DNA of 42,643 bases, taken from a virus. Below are positions 2,331 to 10,131 of this stretch, in pieces. How positions within the stretch are numbered: position 1 is the first letter of the stretch; each line of letters begins with the position of its first letter. The notes below the pieces were generated by a model. It was given only the letters and a program-made list of their open reading frames with translations, did no database searches and was not told the DNA's origin. The stretch lies in UHGV virus genome UHGV-1882081; one strand, given 5' to 3'. A program made the position numbers and the translations under genes.

Positions 2331-4322
2331 CTATTCCTCAATACCTAACCTGCTTGAAACCTCCGGCATAACAGTAACCTGAAGGGTTTTTGATGAATCT
2401 GTGTTTTTAATTGCTATGCTTATATTGTCAGAAGTGCTGTTATTGTTTGACACTGTTATAGAGTTTGCATCCACCCCGAGTTTCGAATAAGCATCAGCAA
2501 AACTAAGACCAACACTTCCACCAACAACTCTATATGAACCATCAATTCTGAATGACGATATATTGTTATTGCTAACATCTCTAATTAGAACCCATATAGA
2601 AACACCCCTGAAAACAAGGCTTGCCCCTGATGGTATTTGAAGTGATACAGTTCCTGTGGAACCCGGGGGGATACTGCCAGTATATTTAGTTCCGTGCAGA
2701 TATTTCCCCGGTAGATCTAAATACGATGTATCTGGCTGCAATAAATTATGTATATGTCTGCTATCTATGCTTCCAGACAGAACCATAGAATCATTTCCAT
2801 ATTCAATTATCCTTCCACCATCGTTACTTATTGTAAGTAATCCTTTGTTTCCTTTATTGTTTCTAACAGTTATATCAGAAGAATCCAGGCGGACAATTGA
2901 TATATTTTTTTCTGTTCCATGACAATAATTTGATGAAATTTCACCTGTAACAAGTGACGTACATAAAATGTCTGAACTTCCATCACTGTCGCCAGTAATA
3001 GTGTTACAGGAAATTAATGCACCATATACCAGACCTGTCGGAGATTCTCCAAATTGCTCTATAGTAATCCGTTTTGTGGTATTTGCTGATATGGTTATAT
3101 TATGAACATCGTCAGTTTGCGATGTTACTTTGATCCTTGATGAAACGGTATTTCCAGAAATAGTAACATTACTTGTATCATCCACCCATAAATATGACGA
3201 AAACGTATTACATGATATGACTGAGTTACTCACCATTGAGTTCTCAAGCTCACATGAACCATAGCTATTGTTATGGTCATAATTTCCTATAATCCTTACA
3301 AATCCATTCTGGTTAATGAAGTTGTATGATGTTGCATTTTGTCCGCCATAAGTTGAGTTATGCGATGTTTCAGCATTTGTAACGCCTATATGTTGAAAAT
3401 GACCGGCATTTACAGAATCAGGAGCAACTGATGTACACCCTATTATTTTTGTATTTTTGACAGTTCTTGAATTAGGGTCATTCTCCAAATAATAGTTTTT
3501 TGCAACAAATGCCGTAGAGTAAAAGAAACCTTCAAATCTATTAAATAAAATCTGAATATCGTCATAATCTCTTTGGTCTTCATTTGCATAGCAATAAAAT
3601 GCTCTTGAAGACTCGGAGTAATCCTTGCATTTCTGAACACCAGATAAAAGTGATCGTATTCTGCTAGATTTTATTCTAAATCCGTTGTGAATTAACGTTG
3701 CATCACCAACCAATGTTATTGGCTTAAGCAATTCAACCTTATCAAAAACAAATTCACCACCATAAAATCCAAGTATAGCCCCTTCTGGTACTGCATTAAT
3801 AGCATTTTGAATTGCTACAGTATCATCTGTTATGCCGTCTCCTTTTGCACCAAAATCACTAACACTAATGTGCTCGGCATTTTTTTGATGCTGCGTCCTT
3901 CTTATTGACAAGGTGAATGGTTGTTTTACTGCTATTAATGCATCTCCAAGATCATCACCTGAACTTGCTAACTCCTGCCTTAACTGATCCGGGTCATACT
4001 TCAGCACATTTGGAAAATAGAACTGCTGCGCACCATACGCATCATAAACAGCCATAGAATGGCCTTGCACAGTTACGAACTTGGCAATCTGTCCGTTATA
4101 TACCGGATATCCAGCAGCGTTAATGATGATTGGCTGTTCAACAGGAACGTGAGAGGCGTCTTCGTTCTCCACATAAACCTGAATCTGGTTTTCAGGGTTT
4201 ACCGGGTCAGTGTCAATTTTACCGATATAAATTTTGCCATTGGCTACGGCTTTAAAAGAACGAGCCATAGTGAAGAGTTGCGAAGGCATCGATACGATCA
4301 CATTGGCTGTAATGTCTGTCAT
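2331..4322 (-). CDS. tailspike protein: P22/HK620-like N-terminal head-binding domain fused to a right-handed beta-helix polysaccharide depolymerase domain
   Basis: N-terminus [55 protein letters not shown]... matches P22 gp9/HK620 tailspike head-binding domain; downstream [19 protein letters not shown] is the pectate-lyase-3-type motif of depolymerases. The 3' two-thirds is markedly AT-rich. Confidence 0.9.
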
Positions 4323-4380
4323 TTAATTTGCTCCAGATACAAGGAATCGCCGAAGCATGGCTACGGTGAATTTTGGGCAT

Positions 4381-4404
4381 AAAAAAACCCAGCCGAAGCT
4401 GGGT
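4381..4404 (-). terminator. rho-independent terminator downstream of ant
   Basis: On the minus strand acccagc-ttcg-gctgggt hairpin followed by a 7-T run (plus strand aaaaaaacccagccgaagctgggt). Confidence 0.7.
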
Positions 4405-4422
4405 CGTTGCGTTGGTTATCTG

Positions 4423-5352
4423 TCAGTAGTTATGTACTGAAGGAGGTAATTCTTTATTCTTAAGTCTCATCCATGCGGAAAGATTCGTTGGTCCGTCTGG
4501 CTCATTGATATCAACATCTCGTGTGTGGTTTATTAAAACGTCTCTCGCCATTCCGATAACATACGAGAATTCATGACCGTAGTCGTAGCATCTGCCGGAA
4601 TAGTTCGATTGAATTTGTTTTAATGCCGGATACAGTTCGCGGAATAATGCCTGTGAGCGGTTGGCATAATCCCATAGCCATACAAGGCTGTTTGCTTCTT
4701 TTGCAGAAAGCTCGTTGGTTTTCTTCTCTTGTTTGCCAATGAACTCACCTTCAAGTGGAACTCGAGCTGCAAGTGACAGTGCTTCTGTAAACTGCTCCTC
4801 ACTGATTTCTTTGTACGAACATCCAAAATGGGATTTCAGTGACGACCACATGGTGATCATCGCCTTAGCCTGCTTTTCTTTTGGTAGAGACTGACCGCGA
4901 CTCATGACGAGTTGTTTAATGGCTTCCTGCTGTTCAGTGGTGATTTTACCCGGCAACGCCTTTTTAGCTTTGCGTTGGTTAACTACATCGCCTTTAGTCC
5001 AGTACTCGTAGAGCACATCGTCACACTCTTCCTGATACTGGATTACCTTGTCGCGGATTTCAGGGCGGACTTTGTTTGGACTGATGGTTTGCAGCCAGCC
5101 AGCAAGTTTGCGAAGTGCCAAACAAATAATCTCACGGCACTGTTCATCACCAGGAAGCTGCATTGTGATTTTCACAATGGAGGTTTTAAACCGTTGCTTT
5201 ATTTTCGTAAACTGTGAAGCCCAATCCATACCCATACCTTCAACGATAGGTTTCATTGGGGTGTACGGCTCACCGTTGTGATTGACGACATAAAGCTCTG
5301 CGCCGTGGAATGGCACGTTGATAGTAGATACTGCTGTTGCTATACTTTTCAT
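4423..5352 (-). CDS. ant: antirepressor Ant (P22 immI)
   Basis: 309-aa [47 protein letters not shown]...; N-terminal AntA/KilAC-type domain; position between arc and tailspike as in P22. Confidence 0.85.
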
Positions 5353-5418
5353 GTCAGTTTTTCCTCAAAATTTACTGGCGATTTAAGCCCGAGCTACTCG
5401 CAATAGCTTGGGCTTTAC

Positions 5419-5565
5419 TCATTCTGGACAAACAATTCCATCCTTAGCTACTGACTCCTTTAGTCTCCTCAATACCTCATTACTGAACGACCGATCATCC
5501 TTTTTCGCGGACTGCTCCAAAGCCTTTTCCAGCCATTCTGGCATCCTTAATGTCTTAACTTTCAT
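5419..5565 (-). CDS. arc: Arc-like ribbon-helix-helix repressor (48 aa); absent from the ORF track because under 60 aa
   Basis: Manual translation MKVKTLRMPEWLEKALEQSAKKDDRSFSNEVLRRLKESVAKDGIVCPE; AAGGAG RBS 5 nt upstream of ATG; Arc/MetJ-like pattern; immediately upstream of ant and divergent from mnt. Confidence 0.75.
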   Translation of the reverse strand: MKVKTLRMPEWLEKALEQSAKKDDRSFSNEVLRRLKESVAKDGIVCPE

Positions 5566-5669
5566 TTTTGCTCCTTTGTATGTGGTACGCATACATAGTA
5601 TTTAGGTACGCATTGATAGTCAATAGATACCTACATATCCTGTGGTAAATAATTATTCAGGATGCGCCG
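5566..5669. promoter_or_regulatory. immI divergent control region (Pant toward arc/ant, Pmnt toward mnt, Arc/Mnt operators)
   Basis: On the minus strand TTGACT-17 bp-TACTAT followed by inverted repeat tgtatg N7 cataca; motif ggtacgcat occurs twice. Confidence 0.55.
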
Positions 5670-5921
5670 ATGTCTGATCGTAAGTACAAAAACCCTCAAG
5701 TGAATCTGAGGCTTCCTGTAGAGATAAAGGAACGTCTTATTGAGCTGGCTGAGGCTAATTCTCGTTCATTAAATGCTGAGATGGTAGCAGCACTTGAGGC
5801 ATGGACTGAAAAAAATAAACATATTCAAGCACTAGATATTGCAACTATAGCATCGCGGTTGATAGAGCTTGAGCATGAGGTTGAGAAGTTAAAATGTATG
5901 CATGGCAACGGTGAAAAATGA
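5670..5921 (+). CDS. mnt: Mnt-like ribbon-helix-helix repressor (maintenance of lysogeny)
   Basis: 83-aa ORF, same length as P22 Mnt, N-terminal RHH pattern NLRLPVEIKERLIELAEANSRSLNAEMVAAL; divergent from arc-ant. Confidence 0.75.
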   Translation: MSDRKYKNPQVNLRLPVEIKERLIELAEANSRSLNAEMVAALEAWTEKNKHIQALDIATIASRLIELEHEVEKLKCMHGNGEK

Positions 5922-6232
5922 AACGCATCGCTATTTTGTTAATATTGTTCTTCTCTACAATAGTTTGCGCCAAACAAAAATCAGATAATGGCGATCTTAA
6001 AGGCCTGCAAGAACTCATGATAACTTCGAAATTTGCTGGCATGTGCGGCACAATCAAACAAATGGCAACATTTCAAGAATCAACAAAAATGCCTGGCGGA
6101 GATGAGTTCTTACAGCGTTTTCTGACCACAGAGCAAGCAAGACTTGGAATGAATCCACAGGAGTTTCTTGAAGCATGCCAGAAGTCAATTTCAGCTTATA
6201 CCAATTATTACAATCTAACTTCTGATAAATAA
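5918..6232 (+). CDS. hypothetical secreted protein (cleavable signal peptide), moron
   Basis: 104-aa ORF MKRIAILLILFFSTIVCAKQ...; start overlaps the mnt stop (ATGA); AT-rich. Confidence 0.6.
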   Translation: MKRIAILLILFFSTIVCAKQKSDNGDLKGLQELMITSKFAGMCGTIKQMATFQESTKMPGGDEFLQRFLTTEQARLGMNPQEFLEACQKSISAYTNYYNLTSDK

Positions 6233-6257
6233 TAGAAAGGATTTTATAAATAACTTT

Positions 6258-6743
6258 ATGAAAAAATCACTATTAATTATCCCGCTTCTGCTGGCTGGAT
6301 GCGCAAAAGTAAGTGACTACCAAGCAAGTTGCGAACAACGCTATCCAAAGCTTAGTGATATGGCTAATTGCCTTGATGCCAGCGTGAAGAACGACTCACG
6401 CATGGCATCAGCACCAACACCTAAGCTGTATGTCCTTGCTGCGAAGATGCTCGGGCAAGGTGTCGATGAAGGCAAGATAAGTGACGCACAGGCAAGACTT
6501 GAGCTTCAGAATCTTTATGTTCAATTACAAAGCCAAGAACAAGCCCAACAAATAGCGCAAAGCCAAGCATTCCAGCAGGCTTTATTGAATTATCAGGCTG
6601 TAAACACAATGCAAGCGATCGAGCAAAAAGCGCGCCAGCCTGTTATAACTCAACCTTACCCAACACGCGTTGACACATATACAAACTGCAATTCAGGATT
6701 TGGAAACACCGTCACATGCAACAGTAGCAGCAACATTAGATAA
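6258..6743 (+). CDS. hypothetical lipoprotein (lipobox LLAGC), Gln-rich, moron
   Basis: 161-aa ORF MKKSLLIIPLLLAGCAKVSDY...; signal peptidase II lipobox; Q-rich central segment; ends 3 bp before the convergent gp16 stop. Confidence 0.6.
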   Translation: MKKSLLIIPLLLAGCAKVSDYQASCEQRYPKLSDMANCLDASVKNDSRMASAPTPKLYVLAAKMLGQGVDEGKISDAQARLELQNLYVQLQSQEQAQQIAQSQAFQQALLNYQAVNTMQAIEQKARQPVITQPYPTRVDTYTNCNSGFGNTVTCNSSSNIR

Positions 6744-6745
6744 AG

Positions 6746-8860
6746 CTATTCATATTCATTCATACCGCTTAACGAGGCGACAATACCAGCTCTCGACAAG
6801 CGATTGAATTCATCGCTACCAATAGCATCGCGTATTGCTTTTACGGCGGCTTTATTTGCCATAAATCTGCGTTCCGCCGCCGCTAATGCTTCTTTACTTC
6901 CGCCAGCTCTTACTGCTTTCGTGGCTTCCTGAACTGCTTTCTCTATCGCATATCGACCGCTACGCGTGGTGGCAATTTTAGATACAGCACCTTTTAACCC
7001 GGCGCCAACTAAAGCACCTGCGGCAGCGCCTGCAATGCCCCCTCCTGCTCCACCAACAATGGCACCTGATGTTGAGTTGGCAATTGCATTTAACACTGTT
7101 GATGTGACGTTGGATAAACCGGCATCCAGATCGCGTAGTACATTGGCGGTTCTCCCTGTTCTTTCAATATACTGCTGAGGTTTCACTGCTGCTCTTGCAA
7201 GAGTGCCATATGCATCTGCAATTCTTCCAAGCTCTGAGGAATATCGGCTAATGGCTTTTACATTTTGTGGAGTGAGTATCTCTGCGATATGGTTAATTCC
7301 TGCTGCATCAGCTTTGCCACCACGTACACCATGCGAGATAGCATCTTGCAACATTGATGATATAGCAGGAACACGCTCTGATTCTGGCAGCGCGCGGATC
7401 ATAGAATGGAACCCAGCAGGACCATTAAGACCTTTAGCTGACGATGATTGAAGGGATTTTACTCCATTCGTAATCAGTGCATCTGTTGCCAAATCACGCC
7501 CGAAAACAGACTCTGCACTCTCTTGTGCTGATAACCTCGCTTTAGACAGATCATTAGCTTTCTGCCAGTCATCAAGAAATCCGCCGTTTTCCGCCATTGT
7601 GCGCATATCATCAGTAATTGCCCGGCGTATTTCCCCTGCTCTCCTTGCCGCATTTGCCTCTCCGCTACGCTTATATTTTTGCTCCGCATCAGCAAATTTC
7701 GCTCTCCATGCTTTCATGCCATCAAATGTTACTCCACCTTGATTGTTTGCCTGAACAAACTGTTTCATTTCAGGAGTAAGCGGTATGCCAGCAGATCGCT
7801 CTGCCTGAATAACGGCATTACCATTTAGCATTCTTGCTTTTTGATTTGGCATTGTTGACCGCACGTCATCCCATGCCGCGCGCTCGGCATCCTTCATCTG
7901 ATCAAGATTTTGAAGAATCCTTTGTTTTATAGCCGCACTTTTTTCTGATGCCGTTCCAGATGCGGCCCCAAATTCATCAAGGTTTCGACTTAACTTTGAT
8001 GATATTTCGTTAAATGCTGCCTGATGGGCATCCTGAACAATTCCTGGTGTTGATGCCAATGCGCCTTCGGCTTGTGCAATTCCACGACTTCCAGATCGCA
8101 TTCCTGGTGTTAATGCGTTTATATCAATTCCAGCAGACTCAGCCGCTTTTGCTACATCTTCGGACACATTAGCGGCCTGACTGGCAATTGACTGACGCCC
8201 TGCACCTGACTTTGCCATCCTGGAAACATCATTAGCAGAATTCAGTGCTGCACCACCAAGAGCCTGTGAAACCCTTGGCGCAATAACGCGCCCGGCACCT
8301 GAAAGAACGCCTTGAGCACCAATATTGATACCACCGTTAATGGCAGCATTTTGTGCAAAGTCGCCCTCCTGATTTGCAGCATCAGCAAGAGAACCTGCAA
8401 TCATGTTTCCTGCGGAACCGATATCTCCAGCGAGCTTTGCTGGCGCTCCAGCAGCTTTTGCCGCTGTGCCAATTGGCAGGAGATACCCACCAATTGTTTC
8501 ACCGGCTTGCGCGTAAGGGTCTGTCGGTCGATCGACAGGGCGATAAACATCATCCAAAACCTTTGGGCCACCAAGCCCCTGGCTGATAGCATTAATCAGA
8601 CTTGCGCCACCCTGCAATACGTCAAATGGTATGTTTACCAGACCACGACCAGCCTGTTCTGCAATTTGCCCGGCACTTTGACCACCAGTGAGCCAGTCAG
8701 TAGCTTTTCCTACCAGAGATTGTTCTTCTGGCTGCGATTGGTTTTGAGTGGATTGATCATCAGAAGACAGCATCTGAGCAATGCGACGTGCTCCCTCAGT
8801 ATCGCCGGCAGCATCAGCATTCCTTAACGCCGTCATCAACTGTTCACGACTATAGGCCAT
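6746..8860 (-). CDS. ejection (E) protein, P22 gp16-like
   Basis: 704-aa ORF, last gene of the virion operon, Gly/Ala-rich; order gp7-gp20-gp16 conserved. Confidence 0.75.
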
Positions 8861-10131
8861 TACTGCCCTCCGAGATATTTGTTAATCAGGTCATCATCAG
8901 AAAGCTGCTGTTGAGACGGTTGTATGTCCTTCCCGTATTTCTGTTGCATACGTTTCTGAGCCATCTCAGTGGTTTTTATGATTGTTTTGATAGCTGCTCT
9001 GGCTGATTTTTCAGACTGATTTGGGGACAAACTACCAATAGCATCCATTACCTTTTGCCCCTCGGCATTACTTAAAGCCCCCATCCCTTTCATCTGCTGA
9101 ATGCCAGATAAGAATCCCTGAGATTTCAGTGTGTCAACCAGAGTTTCTGTATCAGCAGCCTCTGTTCCTGGAATGAATCTACTCGATAGTGGGTTTAGGT
9201 TTGTTCCGAAATATCCCGTGAAACCCGGGCTATTAAGAACTTTTGTAGCCGTCTCTATCGTTCTGGAAAGATTATCCATTCCAGAGTTGTACGCATCAGC
9301 CTTATCTCGCTTTGCCTGCTCCATAGCTTGCTGATTCTGCAATCTCTTGTCCTGCAATTCAGCAAGTTTTAAGGCATTAGTTTCATTTGCGATGAGTCTG
9401 TCGTATTTCTTGTCCTCTAATTCCATCCGACGAAGATTGACATTTTGTTGCGCAATATTGTTGCTTGCCCACCCTCTGGCATTTGTCATGTCATTATTAC
9501 GGATTGTTTCGTTAATTTTTTGCTGATCCTGCTGGCGACCAACCATCTTGTCCTGAACATTGAAGTAATCAATCGGACCAAGAGCAGCCATTCCAAGGTG
9601 ATCAACAAACTCACCAAATCCTGAAGGATTCTGCCGATACATCTGAGCAACGCTGTTAGGGTCAACACCGACGCGCGCCAGTGCCTTGGCGTTGTTTTGC
9701 AGCCATGATTGCATTGCTTCTGGAGACGAGGCCGCAAGGCGTGCGCCAGCCGCTAAGGTGCCGATAGAATTGCGCTGGTCTTCGTCTGCCCACTTCATAC
9801 CAGACTGAATCTTCTCTAATTGACGAGGATATTTGGTCATCAGATCTCGCACCTGCTGTCGATCACCTGACTGGATGGCTGCCGCATATTCTTTTTGGAA
9901 TGCAGCATCCGCTTCCTGTTGCTTTGCGGCTTTATATGTTTGAGCAACACTACCAAGTCCCTGCAATGCCTGAAGGCCGATGTTATTGCGACCTGAACGC
10001 TCCATTTCGTTGTTCTGGCGAATATAGGCCAACGCCTCACTTACATCACTTGCCTTTGGCGCATTTGAGTTTTGCCCACCGATACCAGCAAGAAAGCCGC
10101 CTGAGTTGATTCCTTGTTGCCAAGTAGCCAT
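8860..10131 (-). CDS. ejection protein, P22 gp20-like
   Basis: 423-aa ORF between the gp7-like and gp16-like genes; coiled-coil/Q-rich. Confidence 0.75.

Follow-up and report, generated by a model that had tools for sequence, protein, structure and literature searches.

The superinfection-exclusion gene sieA of phage P22 lies in a stretch whose annotated order is mnt, orf59a, a terminator, the promoter PsieA and then sieA itself, convergent with the ejection-protein gene 16. Genes for SieA (types A, B and C) lie between gene 16 and either the immI region or gene 9, convergent with gene 16. The product, which prevents P22-like phages from injecting DNA and releasing K+, is an inner-membrane protein with 3-4 transmembrane (TM) segments and a cytoplasmic FxRYPxEAxxFNK motif; among P22-like phages just about one in three has the gene, and 85 bp of upstream sequence suffices for its functional expression (Leavitt et al. 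2024, PMC10883804). What the sieA site holds in those P22-like phages that lack sieA was previously uncharacterised. Cor (phi80/N15/HK022) and Llp (T5) are small phage lipoproteins of the outer membrane that block receptors and so guard the cell against superinfection; their target is FhuA, for siphoviruses, and their genes lie close to the tail genes. The morons of lambdoid phages, a Hendrix/Juhala concept exemplified by Bor, Lom and HK97 gp15, are single-gene inserts with presence/absence polymorphism, deviant GC content, prophage expression and envelope products. Immunity proteins of the T6SS type usually take the form of small disulfide-bonded periplasmic proteins or lipoproteins.

The whole stretch of DNA analysed here, 42,643 nucleotides and henceforth called the window, represents an E. 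coli prophage of the P22-like type (Lederbergvirus). Its immI region is laid out in P22 style, with ant, a sar-like RNA, arc and divergent promoters. The ant (antirepressor) homologue, a 309-aa ORF at positions 4423-5352 on the minus strand, is 91% identical to ant of CUS-3, and an identical gene in RefSeq is labelled phage antirepressor. At the arc/ant junction, a candidate for a sar-like antisense RNA (5353-5419, plus strand; Rfam RF00262, E 0.006) scores 29.3 bits, below the gathering score of 43, and its position matches that of sar in P22. It is followed by an arc-like repressor gene (5419-5592, minus strand; PF03869 Arc, E 2.3e-5) and by a divergent control region (5593-5669), the layout of which matches the annotated Pant, Pmnt and operators of P22. 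A consensus scan placed candidate Pmnt sites in this region at 5613-5641 or 5624-5653 (plus strand) and a candidate Pant site at 5623-5595 (minus strand); promoter counts in such scans were no higher than in shuffled sequence, and position is the sole argument for these candidates. An 18-nt inverted repeat (5599-5616/5620-5637) is a likely operator. The next gene (5670-5921, plus strand; PF03869, E 3.1e-10), presumably the first of an operon, encodes an Arc-family repressor with 93% identity to Mnt of CUS-3 and 26% to Mnt of P22. The name mnt, given to this gene in the first-pass annotation, holds as regards the Arc family and the P22-style layout of immI, but is strained by so low an identity to P22 Mnt itself.

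Two ORFs lie 3' of this mnt-like gene. ORF1 (5918-6232, plus strand) starts with an ATG that overlaps the mnt TGA as ATGA. ORF2 (6258-6743, plus strand) follows after a 25-nt spacer (6233-6257) derived from the ORF1 3' flank, and only 2 nt separate its stop codon from that of the convergent gene-16 homologue (6746-8860, minus strand), which codes for an ejection or DNA-transfer protein and appears in RefSeq as 'P22-gp16 family phage DNA ejection protein'. The positions, export signals and mnt-stop overlap first reported for the two ORFs were all confirmed.

ORF1 and ORF2 thus occupy a variable slot between immI and gene 16. That they sit at the sieA position had been proposed before; the claim was not only borne out but strengthened, as the slot is shared and the replacement of sieA is exact in sister phages. 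There, ORF2 or a homologue of ORF1 takes the place of the sieA ORF behind the P22 sieA promoter and leader. In these phages, some 400 bp 5' of sieA are about 95% identical to the region 5' of ORF2 (L070) and to the region 5' of a 52% identical ORF1 homologue (L038), and this shared stretch includes the annotated promoter and ribosome-binding site; the ORF1-like gene begins at the same GTG as sieA. Sharing of the leader, to which artefactual ORF clusters (f0, f3) had first pointed, was verified by alignment. Two families without a curated model are therefore exact ORF-for-ORF substitutes for sieA, which gives a 'hypothetical protein' a testable exclusion or immunity hypothesis. Members of the ORF2 family directly adjoin gene 16, as the final gene ahead of it, in P22-like prophages of E. 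coli, Morganella, Providencia, Tatumella and Atlantibacter and in metagenomic ones, and they hold this position down to about 27% identity and across at least five gp16 types. The distribution of SieA is of the same kind (PMC10883804). In tblastn searches of the window and of all ORF1 and ORF2 loci, neither SieA type A (P22) nor type B (HS1, motif FNRYPGEARKFNK) was found. Elsewhere, the mnt-to-gene-16 slot carries a Rap1a-family T6SS immunity gene (PF18602, E 8e-18), directly 3' of an ORF1 homologue in one locus (L048) and 5' of an ORF2 homologue in another (L005); further cargos are a PEGA-like lipoprotein and small membrane proteins.

The initial reading of ORF1 and ORF2 as one functional two-gene module is not supported, because the genes shuffle independently and show no relationship in an hhalign comparison (probability 5.8%), by which ORF1 was rejected as a distant relative of ORF2. 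ORF1 is present in 9 of the 80 ORF2 contigs; conversely, ORF2 accompanies ORF1 in 11 of 43 ORF1-family contigs and is absent from 32. The window-type ORF1-ORF2 junction is missing from 70 of the 79 ORF2 contigs that could be scored, 69 of which are without any ORF1. In Morganella and Atlantibacter prophages ORF2 is the sole slot gene, and ORF1 homologues occur as single-gene inserts in Mu-like and other phages, standing alone in the Mu-like ones. Among 5426 complete E. coli genomes, ORF2 was found in 186 (3.4%), including O104:H4 outbreak isolates and AIEC LF82, and ORF1 in 18. The mnt-ORF1-ORF2 block recurs with 97-100% identity next to different ant/arc and gp16 alleles (9/80 ORF2 viral contigs and 18 complete genomes). 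ORF1 and ORF2, each coding for an exported protein, are cargo genes that are unrelated and move separately; in this lineage both have been joined head-to-tail to the mnt-like repressor gene. The ORF1-ORF2 junction is a secondary fusion at the ORF2 ATG. A strong TAAGGAG ribosome-binding site with its leader is present in every other ORF2 context and absent before ORF2 of the window, where the spacer holds a sole AAAGGA, 16 nt 5' of the ATG.

ORF1 encodes a 104-aa precursor, with an 18-aa signal peptide (5918-5971, plus strand; MKRIAILLILFFSTIVCA, followed by KQ) and a mature part of 86 aa. The signal conforms to the Sec/SPase I pattern (MKR, then IAILLILFFSTI, then VCA before the K), with a charged n-region, a hydrophobic h-region and small residues at -3/-1, and homologues retain an equivalent signal of varying sequence. 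ORF1 does not qualify as a lipoprotein, as TIVC does not fit the lipobox and Cys17 is not conserved. Across 15 homologues, C43, C87 and a FQESTKMPGGDEF motif are kept; an AlphaFold model (pLDDT 78) predicts a three-helix bundle with a FQESTKMPGGDEF loop for the mature protein. On cleavage by signal peptidase I, an 86-aa disulfide-bonded helical protein would be released into the periplasm.

ORF2, by contrast, is predicted to be a 161-aa lipoprotein precursor. Its lipobox segment (LLAG/C15; 6258-6302, plus strand) matches the pattern [LVI][ASTVI][GAS]C; C15 is invariant and G14 nearly so among 34 homologues, and the lipobox Cys and four further Cys residues are invariant or nearly so in 34-40 homologues. 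The remainder comprises a helical N-domain (residues about 17-100) with invariant C25 and C38, a long Gln-rich helix (residues about 76-125) and a C-terminal beta-hairpin (C144-x9-C154); pLDDT of the AlphaFold model is 64 overall and 75-82 for residues 21-90. The Gln-rich core remarked on at first pass is real, with 13 Q in residues 85-125. Under the Lol sorting rule of E. coli, lipoproteins with no Asp at position +2 go to the outer membrane. Because ORF2 has Ala rather than Asp there (C-A-K-V), the protein, once lipidated at Cys15, is predicted to be sorted to the inner leaflet of the outer membrane, from which it would present a disulfide-bonded helical domain, the Gln-rich helix and the Cys-hairpin to the periplasm. 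Strong purifying selection acts on both genes, with dN/dS of 0.17 for ORF1 and 0.02-0.06 (at dS 0.13-0.27) for ORF2; these low values, together with the conserved Cys residues, indicate genuine genes and not chance ORFs.

Neither protein resembles anything in Pfam, NCBIfam, PADLOC, PDB or fold-library entries, where the Pfam, NCBIfam and PADLOC scans took in both proteins and 15-40 family members. The only matches in these scans were weak and limited to the signal peptide or low complexity (GspK, RVT_N, Cor and Rz-like), and a profile search against PDB sequences returned no match for ORF1 or ORF2. Both do match PHROG families over their full length, ORF1 phrog_19844 (E 6.4e-63) and ORF2 phrog_6067 (E 2.6e-110), each annotated 'unknown function'. 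A distant relationship of ORF1 to Rap1a was rejected, and neither a match to PF18602 (Rap1a/Tai4) nor the corresponding fold was found; searches for ORF2 as an o-spanin, Bor or TraT gave no matches. Profile, PDB and fold searches yielded no sequence or fold link of ORF1 or ORF2 to any exclusion protein.

The likeness to P22 SieA accordingly lies in context: the same slot adjoining immI and convergent with gene 16, occurrence in a subset of P22-like prophages only, a predicted envelope location of the product, prophage expression (shown for the ORF2 homologue of Gally) and, in sister phages, a common promoter, leader and start position. In sequence, by contrast, SieA has no similarity to ORF1 or ORF2, and in place of an inner-membrane protein one finds a predicted outer-membrane lipoprotein (ORF2) and a predicted soluble periplasmic protein (ORF1), neither with SieA-like TM helices, the sole hydrophobic segment in each being the N-terminal signal peptide. 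ORF2 shares the signal and lipobox design of Cor and Llp, but it is twice their size, has a long helical stalk and comes from podoviruses with O-antigen-binding tailspikes, not from an FhuA phage; its match to Cor (phrog_1119) has an E of 0.078 and covers residues 1-29 only, there is no Pfam match, and no homology to Llp was seen.

Scanning the plus strand from 5670 to 6746 revealed no promoter-like or terminator-like sites, and an internal promoter or terminator splitting mnt, ORF1 and ORF2 was rejected. Given this result, the ATGA overlap and the short spacer, co-transcription of the three genes appears plausible from the sequence; in a lysogen, the transcript would probably start from Pmnt. 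Expression from the prophage, anticipated in the first-pass annotation, is supported for the ORF2 family by RNA-seq data published for prophage Gally of AIEC LF82 (PMC9928086, S1 Table). In LB, the ORF2 homologue GALLYPH_13 reached 70 normalised counts, the prophage median being 15.6, and was the second most transcribed Gally gene, with the repressor gene c2 alone higher; it rose about 4-fold in cell-culture medium and about 18-fold in macrophages. The Gally mnt-like gene was at background in LB, so Pmnt-driven expression could be low.

The best explanation is that the prophage expresses envelope protection for its lysogen, with ORF2 as a periplasmic analogue of SieA; we advance it tentatively, its chances falling slightly short of even. 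As such, ORF1 and ORF2 are good candidates for new prophage-encoded cell-envelope protection functions. ORF2 would block superinfecting P22-like phages after adsorption, at entry, with the gp7/gp20/gp16 trans-envelope conduit or an outer-membrane step as its target. For ORF1, whose occurrence spans several unrelated types of phage, a more general target in the periplasm is probable, either a component of the host or a toxin or lysin that comes from outside; its homologues in Mu-like and other phages argue that it is not specific for P22 entry. If ORF2 does block the conduit formed by ejection proteins from the periplasm, it would open a new way to study the passage of podovirus DNA through the envelope, and assays for exclusion already exist in the form of P22 hybrid phages and a K+ efflux test (Leavitt et al., PMC10883804). 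Against protection speaks that the slot tolerates such unrelated cargo as Rap1a, the PEGA-like lipoprotein and membrane proteins, and so may accept any gene; moreover, ORF2 is almost invariant within E. coli, unlike the expected outcome of an arms race. Distant relatives of ORF2 are chromosomal lipoproteins in non-phage contexts, which points to an ancestral function that was cellular; this, too, counts against the SieA-like reading, as do the absence of a strong ribosome-binding site ahead of ORF2 in the window and the lack of any link in sequence or fold between either protein and exclusion proteins. A further proposal, which we consider doubtful though well worth keeping in view, takes the sieA site as a plug-in slot for interchangeable envelope-defence cargos and the ORF2 family as an unrecognised superinfection-exclusion lipoprotein. 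One conserved promoter and leader would then drive SieA types A-C, members of the ORF1 and ORF2 families and a secreted beta-rich protein, the Rap1a immunity gene being a neighbour within the slot. Tethered to the outer membrane and drawn from a family of bacterial lipoproteins that is widespread and lacks a Pfam model, ORF2 would block the gp7/gp20/gp16 DNA-delivery conduit from the periplasmic side, as the mechanistic counterpart of inner-membrane SieA.

Protection might also be directed at competitors rather than at phage DNA entry, one or both proteins being orphan immunity proteins that neutralise antibacterial toxins active in the periplasm, for instance peptidoglycan amidases or lipases of a T6SS, lysins of the colicin or pesticin kind, or the tail lysins of phages. 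We rate this as unlikely, albeit a serious contender. The bona fide Rap1a gene in the same slot of related prophages suggests protection from interbacterial toxins, which P22-like prophages would spread if ORF1 and ORF2 are indeed immunity proteins. Both are small exported proteins in the form usual for immunity proteins, ORF1 sharing with Rap1a/Tai4 a predicted disulfide-containing periplasmic state, and the occurrence of ORF1 in P22-like and Mu-like phages, among others, is in keeping with a target not specific to phages. Equally unlikely in our estimate is a role without anti-phage or anti-toxin action, as lysogenic-conversion or host-fitness factors conceptually like lambda Bor or Lom, which would alter envelope traits such as stress tolerance, serum or macrophage survival, or adhesion. 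The induction of the Gally homologue in culture medium and macrophages, the presence of ORF2 in E. coli including O104:H4 and AIEC LF82, its distant relatives among ordinary chromosomal lipoproteins and the very strong purifying selection, as expected for a conserved host target, would all suit such a role. Yet deletion of the whole Gally prophage left macrophage survival of LF82 unchanged (PMC9928086), no homology to Bor/Iss, Lom or TraT was found, and the near-exclusive gene-16-adjacent position of the enterobacterial branch in P22-like phages is left unexplained.

A function in the lytic cycle, for example spanin-like or in release, instead of in the lysogen is very improbable. ORF2 has the architecture of an outer-membrane lipoprotein and matches an Rz-like spanin weakly in PHROG (E 0.058), and in P22 induction up-regulates sieA as well (PMC10883804); however, that match spans only residues 5-36, mostly signal peptide, and Rz1-type o-spanins are short, Pro-rich and encoded in the lysis cassette, inside an i-spanin gene or beside it, whereas ORF2 is a helical protein of 161 aa from the immI/sieA region. 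Transcription of ORF1 and ORF2 runs opposite to the late operon in a region expressed in lysogens, both are absent from most P22-like phages, and the ORF2 homologue is expressed in uninduced Gally lysogens (PMC9928086). Least credible of all is an obligate two-component system in which a secreted partner and a lipoprotein anchor are active only together. The mnt-ORF1-ORF2 block does recur unchanged, but the distribution described above, with each gene missing from most contigs of the other and each found alone, largely refutes this notion, as does the secondary nature of the junction.

As mobile single-gene inserts, the two cargos share with lambdoid morons the presence/absence polymorphism between homologous phages and predicted envelope products; prophage expression is shown for the ORF2 homologue of Gally. 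They differ in having no homology to named morons and, in the window, in being fused to the mnt operon with no flanking promoter and terminator of their own; in other phages, ORF2 does have its own promoter, within a PsieA-type upstream region (18 of 80 ORF2 contigs). Deviant base composition, another moron trait, is seen in ORF1: the AT-richness first ascribed to both ORFs is clear for this gene (GC 0.378 against 0.471 for the window) but not for ORF2 (GC 0.449).

The region belongs to a P22-like (Lederbergvirus) E. coli prophage, in which the tailspike (2331-4322, - strand), ant (4423-5352, -) and arc (5419-5592, -) genes are followed by a mnt-like gene (5670-5921, +), ORF1 (5918-6232, +), ORF2 (6258-6743, +) and the ejection-protein genes 16 (6746-8860, -) and 20 (8860-10131, -). 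The mnt-like gene encodes a member of the Arc family (PF03869, E 3e-10) that shares 93% identity with CUS-3 Mnt but just 26% with P22 Mnt; despite this distance from P22, the P22-style immI design is complete in the window. Candidate divergent promoters (Pant and Pmnt) lie at 5595-5653 and are both overlapped by an 18-nt inverted repeat (TATTTAGGTACGCATTGA / TCAATAGATACCTACATA, 5599-5637), likely the operator for a Mnt-like or Arc-like repressor. At the very arc/ant junction where sar lies in P22, the window has a sub-threshold match to this antisense RNA (5353-5419, +; Rfam RF00262, 29.3 bits, gathering score 43, E 0.006), although Arc and Mnt are only 26% identical to their P22 counterparts. 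E. coli EC17GD31 matches positions 5600-6800 at 100% identity, and O104:H4 outbreak genomes match them at 98-99%. Because the tailspike differs from that of EC17GD31 (663 versus 825 aa) while the neighbouring immI, ORF1 and ORF2 DNA is 100% identical, a recent tailspike swap is indicated; the receptor-binding part of this gene has very low GC (0.33-0.35).

As the first-pass annotation had described, the ORF1 start overlaps the mnt stop (ATG and TGA share ATGA) and both products carry export signals. The ORF1 product starts with MKRIAILLILFFSTIVCA followed by KQ, a standard SPase I signal, and that of ORF2, 25 nt downstream, starts with MKKSLLIIPLLLAG followed by Cys, a canonical lipobox with Ala at +2. 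In E. coli, the residue at +2 determines the membrane to which a lipoprotein is sorted, Ala leading to the outer membrane, and ORF2 is thus predicted to be an outer-membrane lipoprotein. Its Gln-rich core is also present (13 Gln within residues 85-125), but the AT-richness ascribed to both frames holds for ORF1 (GC 0.378 versus 0.471 for the window) and not markedly for ORF2 (0.449). Low dN/dS values (0.02-0.06 for ORF2 at dS 0.13-0.27; 0.17 for ORF1), together with conserved features, namely invariant C15, C25, C38 and C154 and nearly invariant C144 in the ORF2 family, and C43, C87 and the loop FQESTKMPGGDEF in the ORF1 family, establish both as real genes under purifying selection. Oxidative folding in the periplasm would fit the paired cysteines. 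AlphaFold models ORF1 as a three-helix bundle (pLDDT 78) and ORF2 (pLDDT 64) with a confident helical N-domain, a helix of ~50 residues and a C-terminal hairpin. No promoter-like or terminator-like sites were found on the + strand between 5670 and 6746; on the simplest reading, mnt, ORF1 and ORF2 would therefore be co-transcribed from Pmnt.

Searches of Pfam, NCBIfam and PADLOC with ORF1, ORF2 and 15-40 family members returned only noise, and profile searches of PDB sequences with both proteins were empty. PHROGs places ORF1 in phrog_19844 and ORF2 in phrog_6067, both annotated as of unknown function. The two proteins are mutually unrelated (hhalign probability 5.8%). Among 1.8 billion representative proteins, a profile search picked out 251 relatives of ORF2, mostly lipoproteins of 125-140 aa with a common N-domain and C-terminal Cys hairpin; they fall outside all Pfam and NCBIfam models.

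The two genes had been proposed to form one module, a view that their distribution does not support. We searched 131 loci with the window proteins by tblastn and compared architectures and upstream sequences. At 98-100% amino-acid identity, ORF2 is always the final gene ahead of gene 16, whose product adjoins it in at least five types (99%, 76%, 49% and 35% identity, and undetectable). Among 80 distinct viral contigs, ORF2 directly follows a different mnt-like gene (34% identical) in 31, a PsieA-type upstream region in 18, a divergent PEGA-like lipoprotein gene, as in phage Gally, in 16, and other upstream sequence in 5; the window arrangement, behind ORF1, accounts for 9, and one contig ends too close for scoring. 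Conversely, ORF2 is present on only 11 of the 43 ORF1-family contigs. A 72% allele of ORF1 lies between mnt and other cargo, and homologues at 47-52% identity themselves hold the position adjoining gene 16. On this distribution, ORF1 and ORF2 are independent cassettes and can hardly form an obligate two-gene system. Of 5426 complete E. coli genomes, 186 carry ORF2, 18 the window allele of ORF1 and 18 the whole mnt-ORF1-ORF2 stretch; this block now moves as one, accompanied by different ant/arc and gp16 alleles. At the window junction, ~25 nt from the 3' flank of ORF1 itself run straight into the ORF2 ATG, and the TAAGGAG leader that precedes ORF2 in all other contexts is lost; the junction is secondary.

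The assignment of the pair to the sieA position is borne out by upstream sequence. The P22 annotation runs mnt, orf59a, terminator, PsieA and sieA, the last convergent with gene 16. Some 400 bp of it, comprising the orf59a end, the terminator, annotated PsieA and the ribosome-binding site CAAAACTAAGGAG, are ~95% identical to the sequence ahead of ORF2 in the related locus L070 and ahead of a 52% ORF1 homologue in locus L038, which starts at the identical GTG as sieA. In locus L022, the sieA leader and GTG start serve a third cargo, a beta-rich secreted protein of ~125 aa (~4080-4467, +). SieA of type A (P22) and of type B (reference E. coli HS, recognised by position and the FNRYPGEARKFNK motif) is absent from the window and from every ORF1 or ORF2 locus. 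ORF2-family and ORF1-family genes are thus allelic substitutes for sieA. The latter is found in just 22 of 66 P22-like phages, always at this slot position, and sieA with 85 bp of upstream sequence suffices for exclusion (Leavitt et al., PMC10883804). In the literature searched, we found no description of cassette exchange behind one promoter.

Beyond E. coli, a Morganella locus has an ORF2 homologue between tailspike and gp16 as the sole gene of the slot; Atlantibacter has a 128-aa secreted relative (~27% identical) at the matching position, and Tatumella and Providencia relatives likewise lie in the slot. Locus L145, a P22-like prophage, holds mnt, a 123-aa lipoprotein of the ORF2 superfamily (hhalign probability 97%), a 129-aa secreted form and then gp16; the two tandem, highly diverged members (4624-5402, +) suggest that the ORF2 domain was duplicated and diversified inside the slot. 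In the contexts sampled, more distant, high-GC relatives have ordinary chromosomal surroundings (uvrC/pgsA/EarP; thiolase and others), so the enterobacterial branch seems to stem from a bacterial lipoprotein that P22-like phages took up. Relatives of ORF1 are found elsewhere too: one phage that lacks P22-type genes has a copy behind an Arc/Mnt-like gene (L031), a high-GC prophage has another (L034), and a Mu-like head-gene cluster carries one as a single-gene insert on the opposite strand, a spread that makes ORF1 a generalist moron.

Expression from the prophage, also proposed at first, is seen for the ORF2 family. In the Gally prophage of E. coli LF82, the ORF2 homologue GALLYPH_13 (LF82_138; 94.9% nucleotide identity) has a normalised count of 70 in overnight LB, where the prophage median is 15.6 and c2 (727) alone is higher; this is 4.5-fold over background, just below the authors' 5-fold 'moron' cut-off (PMC9928086, S1 Table). 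Its log2 expression is 6.1 in LB and 8.0 in culture medium; in macrophages, it is 10.3 after 1 h and 8.6 after 6 h (PMC9928086). The Gally homologue has its own upstream region; by analogy, the result may carry over to the presumably Pmnt-driven arrangement of the window. Gally's own mnt-like gene is at background in LB (PMC9928086, S1 Table). GALLYPH_14, the PEGA-like lipoprotein copy, is 3.3-fold over background in LB and rises strongly in culture medium as well as in macrophages (PMC9928086, S1 Table). The authors concluded that Gally has no morons (PMC9928086); both genes just miss the cut-off in LB, yet show strong macrophage induction in the same table.

By function, the closest known systems are SieA and the Cor/Llp-type exclusion lipoproteins, to whose families neither protein belongs by sequence, topology or fold. 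Prophage envelope cargo at an exclusion locus is a known kind; the ORF1 and ORF2 proteins themselves are not known. We tentatively favour prophage-expressed envelope protection. From a mnt-ORF1-ORF2 operon, ORF2 would be anchored in the outer membrane facing the periplasm, and ORF1 would be periplasmic. Since ORF2 remains strictly linked to gene 16 in different genera and takes the place of sieA exactly, it could act as a periplasmic SieA analogue and stop P22-like phages from entering once they have adsorbed, with ORF1 acting on a more general periplasmic target. The genes might instead confer orphan immunity against periplasm-acting toxins, as a true Rap1a T6SS immunity gene occupies the same slot, adjoining an ORF1 or ORF2 homologue; a host-fitness factor is a further alternative. 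The proposal can be put directly to the test with the P22 genetics already at hand.

Genes for small envelope proteins have a hot spot in this slot. In related P22-like prophages, the Rap1a-family T6SS amidase-effector immunity gene (PF18602, E 8e-18) lies between mnt and gene 16 in locus L048 (3024-3383, +), directly behind an ORF1 homologue, and in locus L005 (7604-7942, +), upstream of an ORF2 homologue. Other loci contain an opposite-strand lipoprotein of 139-143 aa (L001/L133, 3448-3867, -; L028, 2967-3398, -) that matches the PEGA domain weakly (E 0.004) and has a hydrophobic C-terminal segment, or a 60-aa secreted Cys-rich peptide and two small 2-TM protein families (L024, 6221-6403, +; L027, 5379-5603, +; L071, 5889-6134, +). 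A podovirus prophage with an orphan T6SS immunity gene may merit a study of its own.
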